A stretch of DNA of 64,000 nt, taken from the sequence record MT446392.1; one strand, written 5' to 3'. Below, in pieces: positions 2,206 through 61,252 of the stretch (positions within the stretch are counted from its first letter, which is position 1; each line of letters opens with the position of its first letter). Origin of the DNA: Escherichia virus TH15. Below the pieces are notes generated by a model. It did not search any database and was not told the origin of the DNA. It saw nothing but the letters and a program-made list of their open reading frames with translations. The translations under genes were made by a program, and so were the position numbers.

Positions 2206-2235
2206 GTGTACATCCGGATTGACCGGGTGCATAAT
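2206..2235 (+). promoter_or_regulatory. T4-type early promoter
   Basis: -35 GTGTACA, 17-nt spacer, -10 CATAAT; A-rich upstream. Confidence 0.6.
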
Positions 2236-2285
2236 GATTCCATACTGAGTTACACACTGAATCACAAAAACTTTGGAGAAATAAA

Positions 2286-2711
2286 ATGAACTTTCTGACC
2301 CTGACCTCTGCATTCTCTGTTACCCGCATCACTAACAAAATGGTTGCTGATGAAGTATGTGAAATCTGCATTCGTGAAGATGCACTTATCCATCTGACTT
2401 CAACCCAAATTGTTGCCATCGCCAAGTCCCTTAATTCTGAACTGAAGGTAAACACCAAACAGTCAAAAGAATCCATCATTGAATTAATCCAAGCTGAAAT
2501 GATTGAATTCCCAATTGAAGAAGTTAAAGAAGAAAAAATCCAGTCCAAATCTGGTAACGCCCGTGACATTTGCTTCCAGGCATTTGCAGAAATTGATATG
2601 AATGATAATGCAGCTCGTCGCGCTCTGATTGATGACCTGGTTACTACCCATGATATCAAAAAGACTGTTGTTCAGTCTTATGCTTCCAACTTCCGCAAAG
2701 CTCAAAAATAA
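2286..2711 (+). CDS. hypothetical protein (paralog of 2795..3238)
   Basis: 141 aa; C-terminal NxAARRALID...VQSYASNFRK shared with next gene. Confidence 0.6.
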   Translation: MNFLTLTSAFSVTRITNKMVADEVCEICIREDALIHLTSTQIVAIAKSLNSELKVNTKQSKESIIELIQAEMIEFPIEEVKEEKIQSKSGNARDICFQAFAEIDMNDNAARRALIDDLVTTHDIKKTVVQSYASNFRKAQK

Positions 2712-2722
2712 TTGAGAAAAGT

Positions 2723-2752
2723 GTTTTACTTCCAAGTGGGATAGTGTATAAT
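2723..2752 (+). promoter_or_regulatory. T4-type early promoter
   Basis: -35 GTTTTACT, -10 TATAAT, followed by conserved leader. Confidence 0.55.
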
Positions 2753-2794
2753 TATCCCATACTGAGTTACCAAATAAACAAACGGGATAATAAA

Positions 2795-3238
2795 ATGAAA
2801 ACTTCAAAACTGGTTAAGTACGTTAAACTGGCATTAAACAACTCTTCTGAAGCTGAAGCGCAATCCGCAGCGCGTATGTTCTTCAAACGTCTGACAGCTG
2901 AAGGTATTTCATTTAACCCGGCAGTATTTGGTATCACTCGTGGCGAAGCTGCTAAACTGGCAACTCTGGCAGGTAAAATTTTTAAAGGTCTGAATGATGG
3001 ACAGGTTAAACCAGAAGTTAAACCTACTCCTAAAGCTGAACCAAAAGCTGAGTGTAAGGCACCTAAACGCTCCGGTATGAGCAACAAAGATTTATGCTAT
3101 GATATGTTCAAAACTGTTAATATGTCTAATGGTGCTGCTCGCAGAGCTGTTATTGATATGATTGTGCGTGAGTTTGGATTCAACAAAGCATCAGTTCAAT
3201 CTTATGCTTCCAACTTCCGCAAAGAATTTGAAATTTAA
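2795..3238 (+). CDS. hypothetical protein (paralog of 2286..2711)
   Basis: ATG at 2795 after GGGATAATAAA; track ATG 2744 lies inside promoter. Confidence 0.6.
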   Translation: MKTSKLVKYVKLALNNSSEAEAQSAARMFFKRLTAEGISFNPAVFGITRGEAAKLATLAGKIFKGLNDGQVKPEVKPTPKAEPKAECKAPKRSGMSNKDLCYDMFKTVNMSNGAARRAVIDMIVREFGFNKASVQSYASNFRKEFEI

Positions 3239-3245
3239 TTCAAAA

Positions 3246-3265
3246 AGGGGGTATACAAGCCCCCT
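3246..3265 (+). terminator. GC hairpin (terminator-like) containing a promoter -35
   Basis: Stem AGGGGG/CCCCCT, 8-nt loop holding GTATACA. Confidence 0.5.
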
Positions 3266-3280
3266 GCTTTAAGGCATAAT
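3251..3280 (+). promoter_or_regulatory. T4-type early promoter embedded in hairpin
   Basis: -35 GTATACA in hairpin loop, 17-nt spacer, -10 CATAAT. Confidence 0.55.
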
Positions 3281-3319
3281 GATTCCATACTGAGTTACCA
3301 AATAAAACTGGAGAATAAA

Positions 3320-3625
3320 ATGAAATTCATCATCAACCTGGCGCTTGTTGACTTTGATAAAACTGGTAATTTCGCATCTGCTGAAAATATGATTCGCAAC
3401 ACTAAGTTCAAAGTGCAAGTCCAGCAGGCGGTAGCAAAAGAGTTCTTTACTGATAAATTAACCCACGTTGTCAATCACCTGAATGTGCAAGTTAAATTCA
3501 CTCGTAAAGCAGAAACTACAGTTGAATTTGATTTTGAATGTCGTTACCATGATGAATATGTTCGCCGCATCCTTAATATTGTATCTGATGAACTTTACTA
3601 TGGTGTGCAGGAAAACAAAATCTAA
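3320..3625 (+). CDS. hypothetical protein
   Basis: 101-aa ORF with GGAGAATAAA SD. Confidence 0.55.
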   Translation: MKFIINLALVDFDKTGNFASAENMIRNTKFKVQVQQAVAKEFFTDKLTHVVNHLNVQVKFTRKAETTVEFDFECRYHDEYVRRILNIVSDELYYGVQENKI

Positions 3626-5227: not shown

Positions 5228-5567
5228 TCTTGCACTACATGTTTATCAATTGGCTGAATATGATATTGGTGCCAATTTATTATTAGGGATTGTTACCGCT
5301 ATGCTCGGGGGCTTGGTTGGCCTGGTAATGACCACAGTTATGGCTGCAATCGAGGGAGTCATGCCTATTGAGATGGGCTTCTTTATGATAATTGCTCCGG
5401 CTGTTGTAGCCTATTTTATCCCGGTTGTGTATGATATCTGTCACACAAACACCTTGAATGCTCCCATCCGTAAGAGATACGCTTTGGCAATGGCTGAGTA
5501 TAATAAGTTCCTGGACAAAACAAAACGTAATGAACTTGAAACCTTTATTAAGGAATGTAAATCATGA
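5214..5567 (+). CDS. hypothetical membrane protein, C-terminal FIKECK tail
   Basis: ATG 5214 after AAGGAGG SD; hydrophobic helices. Confidence 0.55.
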   Translation: MERPSLALHVYQLAEYDIGANLLLGIVTAMLGGLVGLVMTTVMAAIEGVMPIEMGFFMIIAPAVVAYFIPVVYDICHTNTLNAPIRKRYALAMAEYNKFLDKTKRNELETFIKECKS

Positions 5568-5854
5568 ATAAAATTGAAATCGCTATCCCTAAGTATTATG
5601 ATGAGAAATCTGCAGAAAAAGCTATCTATTCTCTTCTAAATAAGACTTCTGAAATTGAAACACATTGTGAAGAAATCGCTGATGAATATGGCATTGAATT
5701 CAGCACCGGCGATTACGGCACAGGTCGTACATACCACCCAGTCGGTTATGAATGCTCTGAATGGTTTACCCATCATATTGAAGCCAATGGCGGTCGGGTT
5801 GAAAATGGTGTTGTTACCGTTGGTGCTTGGGTCTCCTCTTCTGAGATGTGTTAA
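5564..5854 (+). CDS. small protein, WVSSSxxC-tail family member 1
   Basis: 96 aa; ends GAWVSSSEMC; ATGA overlap with upstream gene. Confidence 0.55.
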   Translation: MNKIEIAIPKYYDEKSAEKAIYSLLNKTSEIETHCEEIADEYGIEFSTGDYGTGRTYHPVGYECSEWFTHHIEANGGRVENGVVTVGAWVSSSEMC

Positions 5855-5863
5855 GGAAATGGT

Positions 5864-6145
5864 ATGATGAACGATTACAGTAAAAATAAAGAACTGGCCA
5901 ACGCAGTAAACGAAATCCATAAAGCTATTCGGCGCGCCGAGGAAATTGCAGACAAATATGAGACTCATTTTAATATATACCCTGCTCGCGGTATGGGCGG
6001 TGACTATTATTCTCCTGGCGCCTTGAAAGCTGACCTTGCTCATTGGGAAAACTACGGTGAAGCCCAATACGCCATTGTTAACCAACATGACTACACAACG
6101 GACCTTGAAAAAGGTGGTTGGGTTTCCTCTTCTTCTGAATGTTAA
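5864..6145 (+). CDS. small protein, WVSSSxxC-tail family member 2
   Basis: 93 aa; ends GGWVSSSSEC; TAAGGAA stop-SD junction. Confidence 0.55.
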   Translation: MMNDYSKNKELANAVNEIHKAIRRAEEIADKYETHFNIYPARGMGGDYYSPGALKADLAHWENYGEAQYAIVNQHDYTTDLEKGGWVSSSSEC

Positions 6146-6153
6146 GGAATTAT

Positions 6154-6351
6154 ATGTCCCGTGAATTAGATTGTGCAATCCGTACTGCTGCGGCAGCTAT
6201 TGAAAACGTTATCCAGATTTGCAAAGAAGAACGCGAAGAAGCTGATATCTATATTGACGGTCAGCGTAATCTGGAACAACATATTACGCTTTATAATGGT
6301 TGTATTACTATTAGTGGTACCTCTTGGGTGTCCTCCTCTTACGAATGCTAA
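6154..6351 (+). CDS. small protein, WVSSSxxC-tail family member 3
   Basis: ATG 6154 after TAAGGAA; ends TSWVSSSYEC. Confidence 0.55.
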   Translation: MSRELDCAIRTAAAAIENVIQICKEEREEADIYIDGQRNLEQHITLYNGCITISGTSWVSSSYEC

Positions 6352-6359
6352 GGAAATAA

Positions 6360-6587
6360 ATGACTACTAAAACTGTTAAAGAAATTGAAGACCAAATCCG
6401 TGCACTAATCTGTGAAGGTGAACAGCTGGCCGATAAAACTGGTGAATACTTTCATGTATATGCTGACAGTCTTCAACGATATATTCCTGCGGGCTGTCCA
6501 GAATATGAAGAATATGACTGGATTCGCGGTGATTATGGTATCCCAGAAGGTAAAGGTTTCTGGTACACCTCCTCTATGTCTTGCTAA
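6360..6587 (+). CDS. small protein, WxSSxxC-tail family member 4
   Basis: 75 aa; ends GFWYTSSMSC; TAAGGAA junction. Confidence 0.55.
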   Translation: MTTKTVKEIEDQIRALICEGEQLADKTGEYFHVYADSLQRYIPAGCPEYEEYDWIRGDYGIPEGKGFWYTSSMSC

Positions 6588-6596
6588 GGAATAAAA

Positions 6597-6821
6597 ATGT
6601 CTGATATTAATGAATTAGAAAAAGCAGCTCTTGAACTGGCTGCGCTGTATAAGAAAGTTAAAGATATGGCTTCTGCTCAAGATTTCGGTATTGAGCTCGA
6701 TGATTATGATGGCGAAGTTCGTCTTGAAGACTGGTTGAACAGCTCTTGTTATGGTGAAGAAGCTGGTCGAACCTTCGTTGCTCACCCGGATGGTAAAATC
6801 TGGTACCCGAGCAGCTGCTAA
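6597..6821 (+). CDS. small protein, WxSSC-tail family member 5
   Basis: 74 aa; ends KIWYPSSC; TAAGGAA junction. Confidence 0.55.
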   Translation: MSDINELEKAALELAALYKKVKDMASAQDFGIELDDYDGEVRLEDWLNSSCYGEEAGRTFVAHPDGKIWYPSSC

Positions 6822-11361: not shown

Positions 11362-11390
11362 TTTACATCTCCAAACGATAGGGTTATAAT
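11361..11390 (+). promoter_or_regulatory. T4-type early promoter
   Basis: -35 GTTTACA, 17-nt spacer, -10 TATAAT. Confidence 0.65.
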
Positions 11391-11416
11391 GACCCTATCA
11401 ACTACGGAGAACAAAC

Positions 11417-18225: not shown

Positions 18226-18255
18226 GTTTACATCCTCATAAAAAGGGTGTACTAT
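18226..18255 (+). promoter_or_regulatory. T4-type early promoter
   Basis: -35 GTTTACA, 17-nt spacer, -10 TACTAT. Confidence 0.5.
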
Positions 18256-18283
18256 TATCCCATCAACTACTGAGGAGAACACA

Positions 18284-21552: not shown

Positions 21553-21582
21553 GTGTACAACAAGATGGTCATGAGGCATAAT
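21553..21582 (+). promoter_or_regulatory. T4-type early promoter
   Basis: -35 GTGTACA, 17-nt spacer, -10 CATAAT. Confidence 0.6.
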
Positions 21583-21622
21583 GATTCCATACTGAGTTAC
21601 CAAATAAAAACGGGAGAATAAA

Positions 21623-21829
21623 ATGTTAGAATTAATCAAAGCTGCTGGTGAAAAAGGTCTGATGGTTAACACTCGTGACCCTGAACAACGTCAAGCATTT
21701 GGTGAGTTAAAAGCCAAAGGTCTGGTTAAAGCATCCCTTGGTATTGGTAATGCTTTGCGTGTGACTTTGACCCCTGCAGGTAAAGCAATGTTCTTCCCTA
21801 AACCATTACCAAAACGTCGTCGCAAGTGA
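21623..21829 (+). CDS. hypothetical basic protein
   Basis: 68 aa, C-terminal KRRRK. Confidence 0.5.
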   Translation: MLELIKAAGEKGLMVNTRDPEQRQAFGELKAKGLVKASLGIGNALRVTLTPAGKAMFFPKPLPKRRRK

Positions 21830-22170: not shown

Positions 22171-22208
22171 GTTCCTATACTGAGTTACCAAACAAACGGG
22201 AGAATAAA

Positions 22209-22733
22209 ATGGAAGCCAAATCAATCTTTAATCTGATTAATTACAATAATGGTAATTTTAAATCAGAAGCACAAAGCAAGTTCTTTAATGATGTTGCTTG
22301 TGCAGGTGAGATTACAGTATCAGGCGGTCAAACTTATAAAAACGCCTGGAACTGGATTGTAAATGTTGATTCAGTTGGTATTGTTGATGTGTATAAAAAC
22401 ACCAACAAAAACCGCTCTTTGTTCTGGTCAAGAGAGACTAATGCTGAGTATCAGGCAACAAGAGCAAAGAAAAATATGCCTACTGAATCTGATGTACAGA
22501 ACATCAAATCAGATATCCAATATTATGATGGTCTGATTGCTGAACAACAAGCAGTGCTTGATAAGTTCAATGAAATCAAAGCATGTAAAGAGATTCCTGA
22601 ATTCATGAGGGAATCAGTTAATGAACAATACAATCTCACTTCAGAGCGTATTGAAACCTATACCAAACAAAGAGCAGAGCGCCAGGTACTCCTTCAGAAG
22701 TTTGAAGAGCGTTTAAAGACGGTTCTCGCATAA
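22209..22733 (+). CDS. hypothetical protein
   Basis: 174-aa ORF. Confidence 0.6.
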   Translation: MEAKSIFNLINYNNGNFKSEAQSKFFNDVACAGEITVSGGQTYKNAWNWIVNVDSVGIVDVYKNTNKNRSLFWSRETNAEYQATRAKKNMPTESDVQNIKSDIQYYDGLIAEQQAVLDKFNEIKACKEIPEFMRESVNEQYNLTSERIETYTKQRAERQVLLQKFEERLKTVLA

Positions 22734-30027: not shown

Positions 30028-30058
30028 TATCCCATCAACTACTGATGAGGAAAACAAA

Positions 30059-30241
30059 ATGGTTATTCAAGATAAAGAAATTAAAGTTGACCGGTATTAT
30101 TCTGTAAATGGCTATCCTGTACAGGTAACCAAAGTGACTGACCAAGATGTATGGTATCGTCCTTTGAAATGGCCTGATGCTCCGTTGATGGTGTGTGACC
30201 GTAGCTTGTTCAATACAGTTGCAAAAGGACCTAAATTATGA
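30059..30241 (+). CDS. hypothetical protein
   Basis: 60-aa ORF after TGAGGAAAA. Confidence 0.45.
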   Translation: MVIQDKEIKVDRYYSVNGYPVQVTKVTDQDVWYRPLKWPDAPLMVCDRSLFNTVAKGPKL

Positions 30242-47608: not shown

Positions 47609-47942
47609 TATCGATTTATCTGATTTAGATAATTTCGAGAAAGATGCGGAGGGAGCTAAGGCTCCTTCTGTGCCTTACTACGAAAAAAGTTTGGAGATTA
47701 TCCGGCAATCCATGGGAACTGTACGACAGGAAATTCTGTTATCACTTCCCGATGGGTCCAGTCACATCGTGTACGTAACCGGAATTAAAATTGAACCATC
47801 TGGAAAAGTTTCAGTTGATTTCGGCACCCCTTCTGAAGACCGCAAAGCGGAGCTTGCAGTGCATGTAGAAAAGTGTGTTACAATGCAAATACAAGATGAA
47901 ATTGATAAGATTAAAATGAAAAAGAGGTGGTGGAAGTGGTAG
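47601..47942 (+). CDS. 40: gp40-like protein
   Basis: Size and position between uvsX and 41 as T4 gene 40; ATG 47601. Confidence 0.5.
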   Translation: MSDIDLSDLDNFEKDAEGAKAPSVPYYEKSLEIIRQSMGTVRQEILLSLPDGSSHIVYVTGIKIEPSGKVSVDFGTPSEDRKAELAVHVEKCVTMQIQDEIDKIKMKKRWWKW

Positions 47943-49366
47943 AAACTATTTTATCCCAGCTACTCTTTAACAAGGAATATTTTGTTAAAGTCTGGCCATA
48001 TCTGAATAATACATATTTTGAAAAGGGTCCTGCGAAGACCCTTTTTAATACGATTAACGAACATGTAAAAGAATATCAAGCAGTGCCAACTAAGACTGCA
48101 CTTGATATCGCGCTCGACGGTTCTGACCTTTCTGAAGTTGAATATGAAGGCACAAAGAAACTCTTAGGAGTCCTGGCCGATACTCCAGAAGACCAGGAAT
48201 GGTTGGTCAGAGAAACCGAGAAGTATGTACAGAAGTCTGCGATGTTCAATGCCACATCCAGGATTATCGAAATCCAGAGTAATGCCGAACTTCCGAAAGA
48301 TAAGCGTGATAAACGAATCCCGGATATCGGGGCTATCCCTGACATTATGCGCGATGCATTGTCTATTTGTTTTGACTCTGCTCTGGGCCATGACTGGTTA
48401 AACGATTACGAAGCTCGATTCCAGACTTATCTGAACAAATCGAAGAAAGTTCCGTTCCGTATTAACATCCTGAATAAAATTACGAAGGGTGGAGTTGAGT
48501 ACGGTACAGAGAACGTTTTACTAGCCGGGACAAACGTCGGGAAATCCCTTGGACTCTGTTCATTAGCCGCTGACTATCTTCAGACTGGTCATAACGTTCT
48601 TTATATAAGCATGGAAATGGCTGAAGAAGTATGTGCCAAACGTATTGATGCCAACTTGCTGGATGTGTCTCTGGATGATATTGATGAAGGTCATATATCA
48701 TGGGCGGAATATAAAGCTAAGATGGAAAAATGGCGTGCTTCCGGGACTCTCGGGACTCTGAAGATAAAACAATATCCAACTGGGGGCGCGCATGCGGATA
48801 CCTTCCGTGCATTACTGAACGAGTACAAACTGAAGCAAGGATTTGTACCAGATGTGATTATTGTTGACTACCTGGCAATCTGCGCAAGCTCAAGACTGAA
48901 AACGTTTACCGAAAACAGTTACGGCCTGATTAAGATGGTTGCAGAAGAACTTCGTGGTCTGGCGGTCGAGAAAAATGTGGTCCTATGGACCGCGGCGCAG
49001 ACAACCAGGGGCGCGAACGTTGCAGCTGAGATTGATATGGCTGACATCGCAGAATCCTTTGGTATTGCTCACACGGCTGACTTTATGTTGGGTGTTGTTG
49101 AGACCGAAGAATTCGCTCAAATGGGACTGCAGTTAATCAAACAGCTTAAGTCTCGTTATGGCGATAAGAACTACTATAATAAATTCAAGATGGGTGTTAA
49201 GAAAGGTAATCAACGCTGGTATGAGGTTGATGATGATTCAGCTCCTAAACAAGGCCCTACGGTGAAAGAAGCCACTGGTGAGATGAATCGTCAGGCTGAA
49301 ATGAATAGACAAACCAGGGTCAACAGGAGCGACCTGGATGACCTTGCCGCTCAAATGAAATTTTAA
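47936..49366 (+). CDS. 41: replicative DNA helicase gp41
   Basis: DnaB-like; Walker A AGTNVGKS; GTG at 47936 gives MVETILSQL matching T4 MVEIILSHL. Confidence 0.9.
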   Translation: MVETILSQLLFNKEYFVKVWPYLNNTYFEKGPAKTLFNTINEHVKEYQAVPTKTALDIALDGSDLSEVEYEGTKKLLGVLADTPEDQEWLVRETEKYVQKSAMFNATSRIIEIQSNAELPKDKRDKRIPDIGAIPDIMRDALSICFDSALGHDWLNDYEARFQTYLNKSKKVPFRINILNKITKGGVEYGTENVLLAGTNVGKSLGLCSLAADYLQTGHNVLYISMEMAEEVCAKRIDANLLDVSLDDIDEGHISWAEYKAKMEKWRASGTLGTLKIKQYPTGGAHADTFRALLNEYKLKQGFVPDVIIVDYLAICASSRLKTFTENSYGLIKMVAEELRGLAVEKNVVLWTAAQTTRGANVAAEIDMADIAESFGIAHTADFMLGVVETEEFAQMGLQLIKQLKSRYGDKNYYNKFKMGVKKGNQRWYEVDDDSAPKQGPTVKEATGEMNRQAEMNRQTRVNRSDLDDLAAQMKF

Positions 49367-49374
49367 AATATTTT

Positions 49375-49397
49375 AAAAGGGGCTTACAGCCCCTTTT
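49375..49397 (+). terminator. terminator hairpin containing a promoter -35
   Basis: Stem AAAAGGGG/CCCCTTTT, loop CTTACAG. Confidence 0.6.
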
Positions 49398-49411
49398 TCT
49401 TATGTTATAAT
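49383..49411 (+). promoter_or_regulatory. T4-type early promoter embedded in terminator hairpin
   Basis: -35 CTTACA in loop, 17-nt spacer, -10 TATAAT. Confidence 0.5.
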
Positions 49412-49437
49412 GACCCTATCAACTACTGGAGAATAAA

Positions 49438-49755
49438 ATGAAAACTATTGATTGCAAAGCGGAATACAAAGTTTATTATCATGGCTCAAGCTCTAATGCT
49501 GGAATCCAAAATATGCTTTGCCCTCCTGATGCAACTGGTGTTCTGTCAGAAGTTGGGCGCAAGAAAAATTTAGGGCGTGTGTTTTTTACTGAAGATATTG
49601 GTTTGGCACGTATCTATGCAGGAAGAGCAGCTCGTTCAGTGGGAGGAGAACCCCGTCTTTATCGTGTGATTGCACCTGTTGATGTGGTTTGTTTAAATGA
49701 TACTAAAGGCGCAACAGTTTATCACGCAGACTGGGCGTTTTGTGAGGAAATCTAA
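49438..49755 (+). CDS. hypothetical protein
   Basis: 105 aa; ends EEI with GAGGAAATCTAA forming SD of next gene. Confidence 0.55.
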   Translation: MKTIDCKAEYKVYYHGSSSNAGIQNMLCPPDATGVLSEVGRKKNLGRVFFTEDIGLARIYAGRAARSVGGEPRLYRVIAPVDVVCLNDTKGATVYHADWAFCEEI

Positions 49756-49968
49756 ATGTATAAATTAGAGAACGTAGTGTTTATTGGTTGGTTTGAAAAT
49801 GGTAATATGTTTACCAAAGAAACCGCGCTGGATGTTAGTGACCAAAAAATGATTGAATGGGTTACGGTGCAGTATGCAGAGGTGAATAATGCGCTGGTGA
49901 AAGCCTTTGTTAATGACAATAAAGTTTTTGAATGTGATTATCGTATCCACTTATCTGAGGAAATCTAA
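49756..49968 (+). CDS. hypothetical protein
   Basis: 70 aa; NALVKAFVNDNKVF shared with next gene; ends EEI. Confidence 0.5.
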   Translation: MYKLENVVFIGWFENGNMFTKETALDVSDQKMIEWVTVQYAEVNNALVKAFVNDNKVFECDYRIHLSEEI

Positions 49969-50310
49969 ATGGCTTTTAATCCAGAAGACCGCGTAAAAGT
50001 AACAATCAAAGTGAGTGCTGTTGGCGTTCCATCTTTTGAGCGCTCAAGTATGTTCCATCCCGCAGGTATTCACTGGTATGTTCAGAAGACTGCTGATAAC
50101 TATAATGCGCTTGTTGAAGCTTTTGTTGATGACAAGCTAATTCATAAAGTAGACATGCGTAAGGGTACCGCATTGCGTAATCTGATTTTGACCGTTGAAG
50201 CGCAACTGTTAAATGAAGAAATCTGCCTTACTGATATTGAAGCAGCTCTTCATATTGCACGTGCTGAATATTACAACTTGACCGGTTTTTCAGTTGAAGG
50301 CGAAAAATAA
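49969..50310 (+). CDS. hypothetical protein
   Basis: 113 aa; paralogous core NALVEAFVDDKLIH. Confidence 0.5.
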   Translation: MAFNPEDRVKVTIKVSAVGVPSFERSSMFHPAGIHWYVQKTADNYNALVEAFVDDKLIHKVDMRKGTALRNLILTVEAQLLNEEICLTDIEAALHIARAEYYNLTGFSVEGEK

Positions 50311-50340
50311 GTGTACAACAAAGGGATAATGCAGTATATT
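50311..50340 (+). promoter_or_regulatory. T4-type early promoter
   Basis: -35 GTGTACA, 17-nt spacer, -10 TATATT; flanked by 9-bp inverted repeat AGGGATAAT/ATTATCCCT. Confidence 0.5.
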
Positions 50341-50368
50341 ATCCCTATCAACTACTGAGGAGATTGAA

Positions 50369-50662
50369 ATGAAAAAGTTATTAATCGCGGCAATTCTTAC
50401 CGTAGCATCATGTGGTACAGCTCCTGTAACCGCTGGACTTGATAAAGACCTTTGTGAGTGGTCTATGACTGCTGACCAGACTGATGTTGAACATCAGATT
50501 TATGCTGATATCATGAATATTACTAAACGTGACCGCCCAGATATGGTTAAAGAAGTATCTGACCAACTGGCTTCTGGCGACGTTATGCAGTATAACTATG
50601 TTCTGTATTGCGATGCTTCATTTGACAACAGCAAGATTGTTCAATGGGTTACAGGTGAATAA
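50369..50662 (+). CDS. putative lipoprotein
   Basis: Signal peptide with lipobox TVASC. Confidence 0.55.
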   Translation: MKKLLIAAILTVASCGTAPVTAGLDKDLCEWSMTADQTDVEHQIYADIMNITKRDRPDMVKEVSDQLASGDVMQYNYVLYCDASFDNSKIVQWVTGE

Positions 50663-50663
50663 A

Positions 50664-51104
50664 ATGATTAACAGAAATTTAGTTATCAAAAAACTTCGTT
50701 GTAAAAATCAAAATGCACAGGCATACAGGATGTTTTGGAGCGACGACCCCATCCAATACCTGGGTTATTTTCTTGTTGATAGTGATAATAGAATTACGTT
50801 TGCTCATAAACTTCTTAACAAAGAATTAAACCATTGGCAAGAACTTATTGCGGTCAAGTCTAAATTATTTTCGCGCAATACAATGCACCAATTGGTTTAT
50901 TTTTTCGCTGATGGTATTCCTGACAAGGTTGAATTTGATGGGTTTGAATTTAAAGACATCAACCCTGATAATGAATTGAATGACAGTATTGTTAATATGG
51001 GTATCCCGGGTAAGTACATCAAAAACAGTCTTTTGAAACTTCTGGAAACTCCTGTATATTCAGTTGACGACCAAATTTTTAATGCCTTCATGAAGCGAGA
51101 TTAA
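50664..51104 (+). CDS. hypothetical protein, C-terminal DDQIFNAFMKRD tail
   Basis: ATG 50664 after GGTGAATAAA; track ATG 50529 overlaps upstream gene. Confidence 0.55.
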   Translation: MINRNLVIKKLRCKNQNAQAYRMFWSDDPIQYLGYFLVDSDNRITFAHKLLNKELNHWQELIAVKSKLFSRNTMHQLVYFFADGIPDKVEFDGFEFKDINPDNELNDSIVNMGIPGKYIKNSLLKLLETPVYSVDDQIFNAFMKRD

Positions 51105-51105
51105 T

Positions 51106-51465
51106 ATGAGTTATTATAATTTTCTGAATTTTGAACTGGTGAGCAATAATGATGGTAATGCCCGTTATGAATTTCGTGAGCCTCGGTTTAATCAGGCGAT
51201 TGGTTATATTATCGTTAAAGATGATGTTATCATAAAGGCTCGCTCATTTATGGTAATGAGTGGACCTTATGAAGATACTCGTGGCTATCCATTTGATAAA
51301 AAGAATGTACGCGATTGTGCAGCATGGATAACCGGAAACCCTGAAATTGGGGTCATGATATCTACTGAAGCAAATGACATTCTGGAAGGGGCTTGGGTTA
51401 AAGCTCAAGAACTGCCTACTGATATTGATGACCAGATTTTTAATGCCTTCATGAAGCGAGGTTAA
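51106..51465 (+). CDS. hypothetical protein, C-terminal DDQIFNAFMKRG tail
   Basis: 119 aa; last 12 codons repeat those of previous gene. Confidence 0.55.
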   Translation: MSYYNFLNFELVSNNDGNARYEFREPRFNQAIGYIIVKDDVIIKARSFMVMSGPYEDTRGYPFDKKNVRDCAAWITGNPEIGVMISTEANDILEGAWVKAQELPTDIDDQIFNAFMKRG

Positions 51466-51466
51466 T

Positions 51467-51688
51467 ATGTTTGTTTTGACCCAATTCTCTAAAGCAATAT
51501 ATAGTTACTCTTGTCAGTGGGAAGTCTTTATTGATACTCCTTCGCCTAAGTATGGTGTTTTTGGACGAGTAACTACACAAGCTTACGTTGCGCGACCGAC
51601 TAAACGTCAGATTCGTAAGCTTAAAAAGGCACATCGTCAATTGATTAAAAGAAGGGAACAATATGAGTGCAATGTGTACGGGCTCTAA
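51467..51688 (+). CDS. hypothetical basic protein
   Basis: 73-aa ORF. Confidence 0.45.
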   Translation: MFVLTQFSKAIYSYSCQWEVFIDTPSPKYGVFGRVTTQAYVARPTKRQIRKLKKAHRQLIKRREQYECNVYGL

Positions 51689-52073: not shown

Positions 52074-53102
52074 ATGTCATATATTGATAGAGAATTTGCA
52101 ATCAGAGCTTTATCGTATCAACCACGTTATAGAGAAGTCACCGGGAGCACATTTAAGGCAAACTGTCGTTGTAAGGTTTGCGGTGACTCCCAGAAAGATT
52201 CACACAAGGCCCGATTCTGGGCGTATACCAATCCGTCTGATGGTGCGGTTTACGTGAAATGTTTTAACTGTGACTACTCCACGCATATAAGCAAATACAT
52301 AAAAGAGTTTGAGCCGGATTTGCACCGGGAATATATGGTTGAGAAGTACAAGGAAAACGCCTTCGGTCGACAACGTAATGAAGTTGCAGAAGCTCCGAAA
52401 GAACAAGAAAAAACTCCGGTTATTGAAGAGCTTGCTTTTTGCGAAAGAATCGATACTTTACCAGAAGAGCATCCGATAGTTAAGTATGTAAAAAGTCGGT
52501 GTATTCCGAGCAATGTTTGGAACCGGTTATGGTTTACAAACAAATGGCCTGCATTAGTTAACTCCGTTAATCCTGGGACGTATAAGAATGAAACGAATGA
52601 ACCACGCTTGGTTATTCCTATCTTCAACGGCAAAAAAGAAATCGAATCTTTCCAAGGACGAGCTCTTCGCAAAGATGCACCACAAAAATATATCACAATC
52701 AAAGCTCACCCAGAAGCTTCCAAAGTCTACGGAGTAGACAAGATTGATGAGCGCAAACGTGTGTGGGTAATGGAAGGTCCGATTGATAGTTTGTTTATCC
52801 CTAACAGCATTGCGATAACTGGCGGCACATTGTCATTGGAAGCGGTTCCTTATCCAGAAACCAGAGTATGGGTAATGGACAACGAGCCAAGACATCCTGA
52901 TACGATTAAACGTATGAAGAAGCTCGTTGAGGCTGGTGAAGCCGTTATGTTCTGGGATAATGCGCCATGGCATACAAAAGACATAAATGAGATGGTTAAA
53001 TCAGAAGGGGCAACCCCTGAACAAATCGAATCATATATGGCTGATAACGTTGCCCAAGGGTTGATGGCAAGAATGCGACTTTCGAAGTACGCAAAAGTTT
53101 AG
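52074..53102 (+). CDS. 61: DNA primase gp61
   Basis: 342 aa; zinc-binding CRCKVCGD...CFNCDY, C-terminal TOPRIM; matches T4 gp61. Confidence 0.9.
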   Translation: MSYIDREFAIRALSYQPRYREVTGSTFKANCRCKVCGDSQKDSHKARFWAYTNPSDGAVYVKCFNCDYSTHISKYIKEFEPDLHREYMVEKYKENAFGRQRNEVAEAPKEQEKTPVIEELAFCERIDTLPEEHPIVKYVKSRCIPSNVWNRLWFTNKWPALVNSVNPGTYKNETNEPRLVIPIFNGKKEIESFQGRALRKDAPQKYITIKAHPEASKVYGVDKIDERKRVWVMEGPIDSLFIPNSIAITGGTLSLEAVPYPETRVWVMDNEPRHPDTIKRMKKLVEAGEAVMFWDNAPWHTKDINEMVKSEGATPEQIESYMADNVAQGLMARMRLSKYAKV

Positions 53103-56865: not shown

Positions 56866-56896
56866 GTTCCTATCAACTACTGATGAGGATAATAAA

Positions 56897-60963: not shown

Positions 60964-60994
60964 CATCTCATCAACTACTGATGAGGAAAACAAA

Positions 60995-61252
60995 ATGATT
61001 ACTTCTTTTAAAATTGGTCAACAATATGAAATGTCTGCTATTCAAGCTGCTGAAGCAGGTCTGACCAAAGCGTTTGAATGTGCATTTACAAATATTCGTG
61101 GTAAAATCTTTACTGTCAATAAAGTTGCAGTATATGATAAAGAAACAGACATGAACAAAGGCATCTACCTGAACGTGTCAAACGCAAAAGGTCGTCGTGA
61201 AATTATGGTTGTGCAACCTAATCAACTAGCGATGTTCAACGAGGTGGCATAA
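60995..61252 (+). CDS. hypothetical protein
   Basis: ATG 60995 after TGATGAGGAAAACAAA. Confidence 0.5.
   Translation: MITSFKIGQQYEMSAIQAAEAGLTKAFECAFTNIRGKIFTVNKVAVYDKETDMNKGIYLNVSNAKGRREIMVVQPNQLAMFNEVA

Follow-up and report, generated by a model that had tools for sequence, protein, structure and literature searches.

Positions 49438 to 50310 of the analyzed window (the whole 64 kb stretch of Escherichia virus TH15 DNA) are occupied by three genes on the plus strand, which lie in a single reading frame with one TAA between each (offsets 318 and 213 nt, divisible by 3). Genes 1 and 2 (49438-49755 and 49756-49968) end in ...AFCEEI-TAA and ...HLSEEI-TAA, respectively, and both times the next ATG follows the TAA with zero gap. 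Both junctions are on the plus strand and have the form T-GAGGAAATC-TAA-ATG: J1 at 49743-49758 (Shine-Dalgarno (SD) bases GAGG at 49744-49747, gene 1 stop at 49753-49755, dmd start at 49756-49758) and J2 at 49956-49971 (SD at 49957-49960, dmd stop at 49966-49968, gene 3 start at 49969-49971). The 15-mer GAGGAAATCTAAATG, hereafter J, is present on the plus strand in exactly two copies, 49744-49758 and 49957-49971, and is absent from the rest of the 64 kb window; the T ahead of it extends the exact repeat common to both junctions to 16 nt (49743-49758 / 49956-49971). The exact 15-mer at both junctions bears out what the first-pass annotation had noticed here, namely that genes 1 and 2 end in EEI with the next ATG abutting.

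Gene 1 (105 aa) encodes a conserved protein of T4-like phages (phrog_2110) with homologues in 609 phage records. Sequence and profile searches of Pfam and PDB gave no meaningful match for it. The top matches of its AF2 model (pLDDT 88) to PDB folds are all ART-fold (Arr with TM 0.57, KptA, cholera toxin A and ParT) and weak, with a best E of 0.02; a fold resembling that of ADP-ribosyltransferases is predicted. The C-terminus, ...WAFCEEI, encodes the GAGGAAATC of the junction. It belongs to a conserved motif, WAF[CV]E[EQ][IL], with E103 in at least 90% of sequences, that is kept from coliphages to Klebsiella, Acinetobacter and Aeromonas phages, where the downstream genes are unrelated, and residues 99-104 form the terminal beta strand of the model. 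Because this C-terminus is so widely conserved and forms the last strand, and because Dmd ends in R-G-stop elsewhere, EEI is native to gene 1 and an ancestral structural part of its product.

Gene 2 (70 aa) is dmd, encoding the Dmd antitoxin, which acts against the toxins RnlA and LsoA (PMC8266594). Its product matches the Pfam Dmd family over the full length (PF17587, E 4e-20, 72.3 bits, cut-off 27) as well as solved Dmd structures (PDB 5i8j, E 1e-22; 5hy3_B, E 1e-16). Behind the Dmd core, whose last residues are ...CDYR (up to residue 63), comes an extra tail, IHLSEEI. Past a conserved D-x-R the tails of Dmd proteins diverge: the linker residues between core and EEI differ by lineage (I, K, N, SKP, IHLS), and the EEI tail is missing wherever J2 is absent (T4, ST0, CJ20, MX01). 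Since Dmd ends in R-G-stop in T4 and in Mosigvirus ST0, its EEI tail was most probably copied from the end of gene 1. The two EEI endings are thus unequal, ancestral in gene 1 and added on Dmd. A simple microhomology model, in which J crossed over with the ancestral dmd end (cGAGGAtaa), was considered and rejected, as it would leave Dmd out of frame with EEI-stop.

Gene 3 (49969-50310, 113 aa) encodes a chimera, with a Dmd-like region at residues ~16-65 and an unrelated C-terminal part at ~66-113, whose homologue in phage ESCO10 is a 50-aa ORF standing by itself, and is confined to Gaprivervirus (15 records). All three genes had been taken as a paralog set. This does not hold for gene 1, which is unrelated to Dmd (hhalign probability 0.3%), and does hold for genes 2 and 3, which are paralogous by BLASTP (31% identity over 58 residues, E 2e-6), by the match of gene 3 to the PHROG Dmd family (E 9e-6) and by hhalign of its Dmd-like part (probability 90%, E 2e-6). 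The match of gene 3 to PF17587 covers profile positions 29-59 only and lies under the gathering cut-off of 27 (19.1 bits, E 1.7e-3). Judged by these comparisons, the N-terminal half appears to be a diverged Dmd-like domain and not a Dmd. A single-sequence AF2 model (pLDDT 46) was too poor for fold assignment. A patch of the dmd core, NNALVKAFVNDN (49886-49919, plus strand), is 85% identical over 34 nt to positions 50102-50135 in gene 3, at a spacing of 216 nt. Gene conversion behind this patch was rejected: on manual reading of the codons, synonymous sites match at 5 of 8 identical residues, as expected from protein-level constraint alone.

At J1 and J2 alike the GAGG precedes the ATG by 8 nt. 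Its pairing with the 3' end of 16S rRNA, at a predicted -7.5 kcal/mol, ranks in the top quartile among 144 predicted genes, random positions having a median of -3.1. In GAG-GAA both third codon positions are invariant across 13 lineages, whereas 16 of the 17 preceding codons vary at the third position, and all 15 bases of J, the Ile codon and the stop codon used among them, are strongly conserved in four genera. Spacing, duplex energy and third-position invariance agree with the earlier proposal that the terminal Glu-Glu codons serve as the downstream SD, and the GAGG of J is a good one; a junction variant in KIT01, AAGGAAATC, retains the AAGGA core. RNA folding gave no significant structure at J1 or J2 (z -0.9 and +1.9) and no masking hairpin of the sort that would enforce coupling, an Rfam search found no known RNA family at the junctions, and J has no dyad symmetry or inverted-repeat structure. 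Translation may be coupled across J; independent initiation is equally possible because the junction RNA is unstructured.

In consensus scans only weak promoter and terminator matches fall inside 49438-50310, and strong ones flank the block. At its head, on the plus strand, a terminator-like stem-loop overlaps a sigma-70-like promoter (49375-49411). The stem-loop (49375-49397) has a 10-pair stem followed by a T run, and the promoter has a -35 box CTTACA at 49383 and a TG-extended -10 box TATAAT at 49406-49411, matching the consensus at 10 of 12 positions. From its architecture, as described in PMC2839356, this element was classed as of the promoter-early stem-loop (PeSL) type. Parts of the leader are found again elsewhere in the window (49404-49426 at 11383-11405, and 49425-49443 at 3307-3325). 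The right-hand edge is a PeSL-like promoter and stem-loop on the same strand (50312-50368, stem 50322-50346) before the spackle gene (50369-50662, plus strand; T4_Spackle, E 1e-43). The leader CCCTATCAACTACTGAGGAG is conserved ahead of the spackle gene, and positions 49406-49428 are repeated at 50335-50357. A single early promoter, at 49383-49411, appears to serve all three genes.

The junction was compared in about 30 related genomes, comprising cultured coliphages and a few assemblies. The exact 15-mer occurs there in seven gene-family pairs: gene1>dmdA, gene1>dmdB, gene1>Zn, dmdA>Zn, dmdB>Zn, dmdB>dmdA and dmdA>gene3. After gene 1 it is identical in Gaprivervirus, Dhakavirus, Kanagawavirus and Yersinia phage P8, and where the 15-mer of J2 stands in other phages, the gene behind dmd is an unrelated Zn-ribbon gene or another dmd. 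In Dhakavirus the locus has dmdA alone, dmdB alone, or a tandem dmdB-dmdA with three copies of J. Judged by match length, dmdA is the only dmd in about 15 records (JS98 for example) and dmdB in about 12 (QL01 and PSD2002 for example), and three Dhakavirus records match dmdB-J-dmdA-J-Zn as one piece, KIT01 being a fourth B+A array. Kanagawavirus isolates and 10 Logan contigs carry gene1-J-Zn without dmd. Mosugukvirus PM2 has the order gene1-Zn, also without dmd, and a variant junction, GAGGAAATCTGATG. Because the sample consists mostly of isolates that are close relatives, these contexts are not independent events; roughly five to seven such events lie behind them.

Variation in the junction itself is also informative. 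The gene 3 homologue of VR25 and VR7 stands behind a different junction, GAGGAAACAAAATGA, so the exact J is dispensable for function and is not homogenised everywhere. In Mizar the derived form TAAAATG is found at both J1 and J2, and Shf125875 has it at J2 and, with an extra A inside GAGG, at J1. The repeat around the dmd of P8 reaches 25 nt with one mismatch (J plus ATGGAAGAG.TTG), the Dmd of this phage starting with MEEF as does the product of its Zn gene. Larger collections added little: a scan of IMG/VR for the bare 15-mer gave two T4-like contigs with two copies each, the rest of the matches listed being nearly all single and chance-like, and a Dmd-based search of the same database gave only 5 loci. 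The J-cassette-J pattern was found in six IMG/VR contigs only (155-172 kb), several of them already in the comparison and none from an environmental sample, and in no metagenome contig.

The modules on either side of J are discordant in their similarities. Compared with JS98, gene 1 of the window is 83% identical and dmdA 95%. In P8, gene 1 is 95-97% identical to Gaprivervirus, dmd 73% identical to that of the window and the Zn gene 95-96% identical to Dhakavirus, and Mizar has a gene 1 that is 97% identical to that of ST0 with a dmd 70% identical to ST0 and 84% to VR25. Between JS98 and phage 005 the ATG of J1 is the exact point at which identity falls from 95% to ~48%, and identity is regained ~25 nt before J2; between P8 and JS98 it recovers at J2. 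In the pairs P8/CJ20 and Mizar/ST0 the last ~140 aligned bases of gene 1 are 100% identical until ~10 nt before J. Altogether three or four recombination breakpoints fall within ~25 nt of J. Gene-edge breakpoints are also expected from random recombination combined with selection for intact genes. A length of 15-16 bp is short for UvsX-type homologous recombination, and the true crossover substrate may be the conserved 3' end of gene 1 or the 3' end of dmd, of which dmdA and dmdB share ~33 nt.

Taken together, we consider it probable that J is a compact in-frame stop-start linker that was copied onto Dmd-family cassettes and acts as a joint at which cassettes are gained, lost, swapped and stacked. 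The seven contexts, the tandem arrays with three copies of J, the discordant modules and the breakpoints lend comparative support to the first-pass suggestion that the junction may be a recombination joint. The first nine bases of J would derive from the native last three codons of gene 1 (Glu-Glu-Ile), and Dmd-family cassettes would have received whole copies of J at their 3' end, so that a protein otherwise ending in D-x-R(-G) bears EEI as a scar. Each downstream gene would thereby receive an unstructured, good SD and a start codon directly after the upstream stop. As a direct repeat flanking a cassette, J would preserve both frame and start region, so that a crossover in J, or in a few conserved adjacent bases, could insert, delete, replace or stack whole genes undamaged. 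The series gene1-J-Zn, gene1-J-dmdA-J-Zn, gene1-J-dmdB-J-Zn and gene1-J-dmdB-J-dmdA-J-Zn, and gene1-J-dmdA-J-gene3 in the window, would be the result. We infer that J itself is the crossover substrate and not a mere marker of module edges, and that copying went from J1 to J2.

An ancient tandem duplication could by itself have given the arrangement in the window, if [J + dmd] was doubled once, the second copy became gene 3, and J was frozen as a selected start region with no role in recombination. The Dmd-like half of gene 3 does begin immediately after J2, the repeat spacings of 213 and 216 nt are compatible with one duplicated unit, the SD bases are clearly under selection, and the core patch is accounted for by constraint on the protein. 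Yet J2 also stands before the unrelated Zn-ribbon gene, as J1 does in phages without dmd, and the dmdA-only, dmdB-only and B+A states coexist on near-identical backgrounds, with module similarities that are discordant. The contrast in conservation is also difficult to reconcile with one old duplication: J is identical at 15 of 15 positions, while the paralogs share 31% of their amino acids and the linker residues differ. Moreover, the dmd>gene3 junction of VR25 has drifted, so selection alone does not freeze J. We therefore regard duplication alone as unlikely.

Statistics of the window would by themselves leave room for convergence of J1 and J2, without shared descent, on an optimal start region (GAGGAAA, an A/T-rich spacer and TAA abutting ATG). 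Exact 16-mer pairs arise in dinucleotide shuffles at a mean of 1.5 per window, and a single such pair within the window alone is unremarkable. Other, unrelated genes of the window have start regions identical over 16-18 nt, and J-like sites with at most two mismatches number 6 against 0.26 expected, the 4 non-exact ones directly preceding an ATG, which suggests a general start-region consensus. Some of the identity of J could be convergent, as only ~2-3 bases are free given GAGGAAA, the abutting TAA and ATG. Under a position-weight model built on 147 predicted start regions, however, identical 16-mers are expected 0.004 times among all pairs and 6e-5 times among adjacent pairs, and both copies terminate precisely at the start codons of adjacent genes. 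The related phages weigh further against convergence: Dmd lacks the EEI tail in just those phages that lack J2, the derived TAAAATG is found at both junctions in the Mizar lineage, the P8 repeat continues 10 nt beyond the ATG into coding sequence, and the majority of junctions in the same genomes have sequences other than J. It is these comparative data, and not window statistics, that rule out chance, and convergence is very unlikely.

Least probable of all is that J is an operator recognised by a phage translational regulator, with a RegA-type repressor as candidate, that would place the linked genes under common control: conservation of all 15 bases in four genera and a likeness to the T4 gene 44 operator, which resembles AAUGAGGAAAUUAUG, are all that speak for it, and it leaves the cassette polymorphism, the mosaic breakpoints and the added EEI tail unexplained, J having no structure or known RNA family and existing as variants in KIT01, VR25, PM2 and ST0.

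A second reused gene end lies 1.1 kb away. The 45 nt of tail and junction at 51064-51108 (plus strand; DDQIFNAFMKRD-TAA-T-ATG) are repeated at 51425-51469 with 93% identity. This tail is common to two otherwise unrelated proteins and equals the C-terminus of AdfA (T4 gp61.2); in the second tail-bearing protein only residues 103-119 match the AdfA profile (positions 195-211). The AdfA-tail repeat appears, from sequence, to be a parallel case to J. A PADLOC search returned nothing of note.

The cassette-joint reading of J has several consequences. If J-type linkers are crossover points, this would explain how promoter-less small anti-defence genes move between T4-like phages with their neighbours intact, and why Dmd variants occur single, swapped or stacked. 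The repeated tail-stop-start unit would then be a signature for finding exchangeable counter-defence cassettes, and the prediction would follow that the antitoxins encoded by gene 3 and dmdB differ in the toxins they act against. In annotating such genes, a short C-terminal tail, for instance EEI on Dmd or DDQIFNAFMKR on proteins that are not AdfA, may then be a recombination scar and not a functional part. More tentatively, T4-like coliphages might maintain, between genes 41 and 61, an array of promoter-less counter-defence cassettes, in which the copied EEI-stop-start unit closing each cassette, and likewise the AdfA tail, doubles as start region and as homology by which co-infecting phages gain, drop or stack cassettes undamaged, and in which stacks such as dmdB-dmdA, or dmdA-gene3 in the window, are adaptive sets of antitoxins that widen the range against toxins of the RnlA/LsoA type.

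Literature searches gave no direct precedent for tandem dmd genes or Dmd paralogs, nor for recombination joints at the level of the gene junction. J shares features with several known systems. With translational coupling, which is general in bacteria and T4, it has in common the GAGG in the last codons of the upstream ORF, the absence of a gap between TAA and ATG, and co-transcription as judged from consensus scans. The dmd>61.4 junction of T4 (CGA GGA TAA T ATG) is similar, with its SD within the last codons of the upstream gene, there Arg-Gly. Ordinary coupling junctions, however, are specific to one gene pair, whereas J is one exact unit in seven gene-pair contexts. In the modular theory of lambdoid phages, short conserved boundary sequences were proposed to target homologous recombination, with exchange of whole modules (PMC3974807). 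Those boundary sequences belong to another phage group, and J differs from them in being also a start region and part of a protein, and in having tandem allelic cassettes stacked between its copies. The likeness to integron cassettes is one of layout only: promoter-less single genes in one orientation, a common promoter, a repeated site and adaptive (anti-defence) cargo. The locus has no integrase and no imperfect inverted repeat of the attC type, and recombination at J would be homology-driven.

The PeSLs of T4-like phages (Arbiol et al. 2010, PMC2839356; Comeau et al. 2014, PMC4122927) are cassettes at which crossovers have been observed between the SD and the -10 box, and they are where close relatives differ by the gain, loss or replacement of genes (PMC2839356, PMC4122927). 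A further feature of PeSL cassettes is the formation of mini-circles through recombination of the repeats on either side (PMC2839356). Like J, they are short repeats that end in SD and ATG and flank single genes in variable (hyperplastic) regions, and the genes flanked by J are likewise gained, lost or replaced among close relatives. The three-gene block is itself bounded by PeSL-like elements (49375-49411 and 50312-50346), both with a promoter. In contrast, J has no promoter hexamers and no stem-loop, is only 15-16 nt long and lies inside a transcription unit, and nine of its bases are coding, so that each insertion appends EEI to the upstream protein. We place J with the PeSLs in the repeat-mediated shuffling known from T4-like phages, as a variant that lacks a promoter and is partly coding.

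The window is Gaprivervirus DNA, from a T4-like coliphage (~96% identity to EAWsc9, PSD2001 and VR20); on one side of the three genes studied is gene 41, encoding the replicative helicase (47927-49366), and on the other gene 61, encoding the primase (52074-53102). Gene 2 (49756-49968) encodes Dmd, as indicated by Pfam PF17587 (E 4e-20) and strong matches to the solved structures 5i8j and 5hy3. T4 uses Dmd as an antitoxin against RnlA and LsoA, two RNase toxins of the host (PMC8266594). Gene 3 (49969-50310) is, by sequence comparison, a chimera of a Dmd-like N-terminal part and a separate C-terminal part. Residues ~16-65 form a diverged Dmd-like domain (BLASTP E 2e-6, PHROG Dmd E 9e-6, hhalign probability 90%), with a Pfam Dmd match under the curated threshold, and residues 66-113 match a stand-alone 50-aa ORF in phage ESCO10. 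This ESCO10 gene (889-1041 in the own coordinates of the extracted stretch L135) lies 3' of a Zn-ribbon gene and is the counterpart of the last 48 residues of gene 3 (window 50164-50310), so either gene 3 would be a fusion or ESCO10 would retain a gene 3 remnant. The annotation given to the ESCO10 ORF, 'cef modifier of suppressor tRNAs', is wrong. Gene 1 (49438-49755; 105 aa) has family members in 609 records of T4-like phages of many host genera, from coliphages to Aeromonas phages, and matches no Pfam family; the best PDB matches of its confident AlphaFold model (pLDDT 88) are only to ADP-ribosyltransferase-fold proteins (Arr, KptA/Tpt1, cholera toxin A and ParT) and are weak (E 0.02). It is named ADP-ribosyl transferase in a few GenBank records and is found directly 5' of Dmd, inside a counter-defence locus. 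The first-pass annotation regarded all three genes as a paralog set, which applies to genes 2 and 3; gene 1 is unrelated to Dmd.

Genes 1 and 2 both end in Glu-Glu-Ile (EEI) followed at once by the next ATG, as had been read from the sequence and was checked here (AFCEEI-TAA and HLSEEI-TAA). The resulting 15-nt stop-start unit, GAGGAAATCTAAATG (hereafter J), which combines a Shine-Dalgarno sequence, the EEI codons, TAA and ATG, has exactly two copies in the 64 kb, 49744-49758 (J1, after gene 1) and 49957-49971 (J2, after dmd); counting the T before it, the identical stretch is 16 nt long. All three ORFs are in a common reading frame with single TAA codons between them. Readthrough would hypothetically yield fusion proteins, and the base after TAA is A at both stops. 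Just 5' of gene 1, a good promoter and a terminator-like hairpin overlap (49375-49411), and a second hairpin/promoter element (50312-50346) lies 3' of gene 3, both matching the layout described for the promoter-early stem-loop cassettes (PeSLs) of T4-like phages (PMC2839356). Because no comparable promoter/hairpin element was found within the three-gene block, genes 1-3 are probably a single early transcript.

At J, GAGG lies 8 nt 5' of the ATG, with a predicted pairing to the 16S rRNA 3' end of -7.5 kcal/mol, which ranks with the strongest quarter of 144 predicted genes (median at random positions -3.1 in the same comparison). The GAG-GAA codon pair is unchanged across 13 lineages while 16 of the 17 codons preceding it show third-position variation, which is direct evidence of nucleotide-level selection on the Shine-Dalgarno sequence. 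The proposal that the terminal Glu-Glu codons serve as the Shine-Dalgarno of the downstream gene is thus supported. Folding prediction indicates unstructured RNA around J1 and J2, so the ribosome-binding site would be accessible, with nothing enforcing coupling. It is ordinary for a Shine-Dalgarno to sit within the upstream gene and for stop and start to abut; T4 has this at dmd>61.4, there via Arg-Gly codons. In the window, the junction catalogue also contains several TAAGGAA...ATG junctions between small genes at 5540-6600 (starts 5564, 5864 and 6597), a type that the first-pass annotation had named for another array.

A larger sample had been asked for as a check, and in it the exact 15-mer links seven gene-family pairs in ~30 distinct genomes or contigs, with no environmental sample among them and many of them close relatives, so that an estimated five to seven independent events are represented, not dozens. 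With dmdA and dmdB denoting two Dmd variants and Zn the Zn-ribbon gene, the pairs are gene1>dmdA, gene1>dmdB, gene1>Zn, dmdA>Zn, dmdB>Zn, dmdB>dmdA and dmdA>gene3. Gene 1 is joined to Zn by J, without any dmd, in Kanagawavirus isolates and ten Logan contigs, and this gene order recurs in Mosugukvirus PM2, where the junction is the variant GAGGAAATCTGATG. Dhakaviruses with flanks 88-97% identical show three cassette states: dmdA only (about 15 records), dmdB only (about 12 records; ~50% amino-acid identity to dmdA) and dmdB-J-dmdA, in which as many as three copies of J follow one another (four records: fDHCT2, ABTNLsp5, 04086 and KIT01). The tandem divergent dmd genes occupy 302-700, 287-685 and 1038-1436 in the extracted stretches of ABTNLsp5 (L144), fDHCT2 (L145) and KIT01 (L146), respectively; the annotations of KIT01 and fDHCT2 show two dmd genes. 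Unequal or reciprocal exchange at a direct repeat would be expected to give these three states, together with the dmd-less state of other genera. The KIT01 middle junction is mutated to AAGGAAATCTAAATG, so dmdB ends in IKEI. A different junction, GAGGAAACAAAATGA, links dmd and the gene 3 homologue in VR25 and VR7, so exact J is not essential, nor is it homogenised everywhere. In VR5 the Zn-ribbon gene that follows J2 is cut to 39 codons (L127, 3205-3325), an example of cassette decay at this position.

The EEI ending is native to gene 1, because its C-terminus, WAF[CV]E[EQ][IL], is kept even in Klebsiella, Acinetobacter and Aeromonas phages with unrelated downstream genes and forms the last strand of the predicted model. 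The Dmd core ends at D-x-R, followed by G-stop in T4 and Mosigvirus ST0 and by SNEK-stop in CJ20, MX01 and KIT01, where the next elements are a promoter and the spackle gene. Dmd carries an EEI tail only where another gene directly follows, after lineage-dependent linker residues (I, K, N, SKP or IHLS). The simplest reading is that the Dmd tail would be a copy of the gene 1 ending, brought with the junction. We lean, with some reserve, towards J being a dual-use unit, a start region built from the native gene 1 end that would then have been copied onto Dmd-family cassettes, and a frame-preserving direct repeat at which cassettes could be inserted, deleted, swapped and stacked. A single ancient duplication, with J maintained by selection only, fits poorly with the Zn-gene contexts and the cassette polymorphism and appears unlikely.

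Module similarities are discordant across J. Between the window and JS98, dmdA is 95% and gene 1 83% identical; in P8, gene 1 is of Gaprivervirus type (95-97%), dmd is distinct (73%) and the Zn gene is of Dhakavirus type (95-96%), and Mizar has a Mosigvirus gene 1 (97% to ST0) with a dmd only 70% identical to ST0 and 84% to VR25. Breakpoints fall at J or close by. Between JS98 and phage 005, identity drops from 95% to ~48% exactly at the J1 ATG and recovers ~25 nt 5' of J2; P8 regains identity with JS98 at J2. The final ~140 aligned gene 1 bases are 100% identical, to ~10 nt before J, in both P8 vs CJ20 and Mizar vs ST0. A derived TAAAATG form occurs at both Mizar junctions, and in Shigella phage Shf125875 at J2 and at a J1 with an additional A, GAAGGAAATCTAAAATG. 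That A shifts the gene 1 frame, hence the annotated 149-aa protein overlapping dmd (L143, 176-625); it reflects a sequencing error or else a genuine frameshift at the joint. The repeat flanking dmd in P8 extends into coding sequence (25 nt, one mismatch), so P8 Dmd begins MEEF, as the Zn protein does. The shared TAAAATG forms and the extended P8 repeat argue for copying rather than convergence, and pure convergence on an optimal start region, which the junction co-variation and the P8 repeat contradict, is very improbable. Still slightly less credible is J as a candidate regulatory operator, which leaves the mosaicism unexplained. For the dual-use reading, fifteen bases are short for homologous recombination, and the conserved gene 1 end, or ~33 nt common to the dmdA and dmdB 3' ends, may share the recombination work; selection for intact genes likewise favours breakpoints at gene edges.

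One exact 16-mer pair in the window is unsurprising, as shuffles average 1.5, and the window holds 138. Under a position-weight model of start regions, 6e-5 identical adjacent pairs are expected. Nearly all 138 pairs are repeated promoter, leader and start-region sequence 5' of unrelated genes, which makes repeated regulatory sequence a general property of this genome. The families, exact repeats of 16-36 nt (2229-3307, 11383-11405, 18254-18278, 21574-21625, 22177-22211, 30033-30061, 49404-49443, 50347-50363, 56872-56889 and 60969-60997), resemble mobile regulatory cassettes of the PeSL type, here in a Gaprivervirus. Unlike them, J is without a promoter and lies inside coding sequence.

J is not the sole reused gene end in the locus, which is dense in counter-defence and exclusion genes (Dmd, spackle and AdfA-tail proteins). 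The adjacent ORFs 50664-51104 and 51106-51465 (146 and 119 aa) are otherwise unrelated and have the last ~15 residues and the next junction in common, as a 45-nt direct repeat of 93% identity (51064-51108 and 51425-51469; DDQIFNAFMKR[DG]-stop plus the next start). The repeated tail equals the C-terminal end of AdfA, the anti-DarT factor that T4 encodes in gene 61.2 (PMC11257639), and suggests gene replacement with a right-hand crossover within the AdfA 3' end. The ORF after spackle could start at GTG 50529 (191 aa, 134-nt spackle overlap) or ATG 50664 (146 aa, one base past the spackle stop), and public annotations of relatives conflict (50529-51104 vs 50664-51104). The 146-aa form is called 'serine/threonine protein kinase' in the EAWsc9 annotation; a Pfam search gave no match at E <= 0.01.

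A literature search found no paper describing a J-type unit or tandem dmd arrays. Repeat-based cassette shuffling in T4-like variable regions is already known, in the form of PeSLs (PMC2839356, PMC4122927). Like them, J flanks gained and lost genes, but it lacks their promoter and stem-loop. J therefore does not count as a PeSL but as a smaller variant, promoter-less and partly coding, inside a PeSL-bounded unit.
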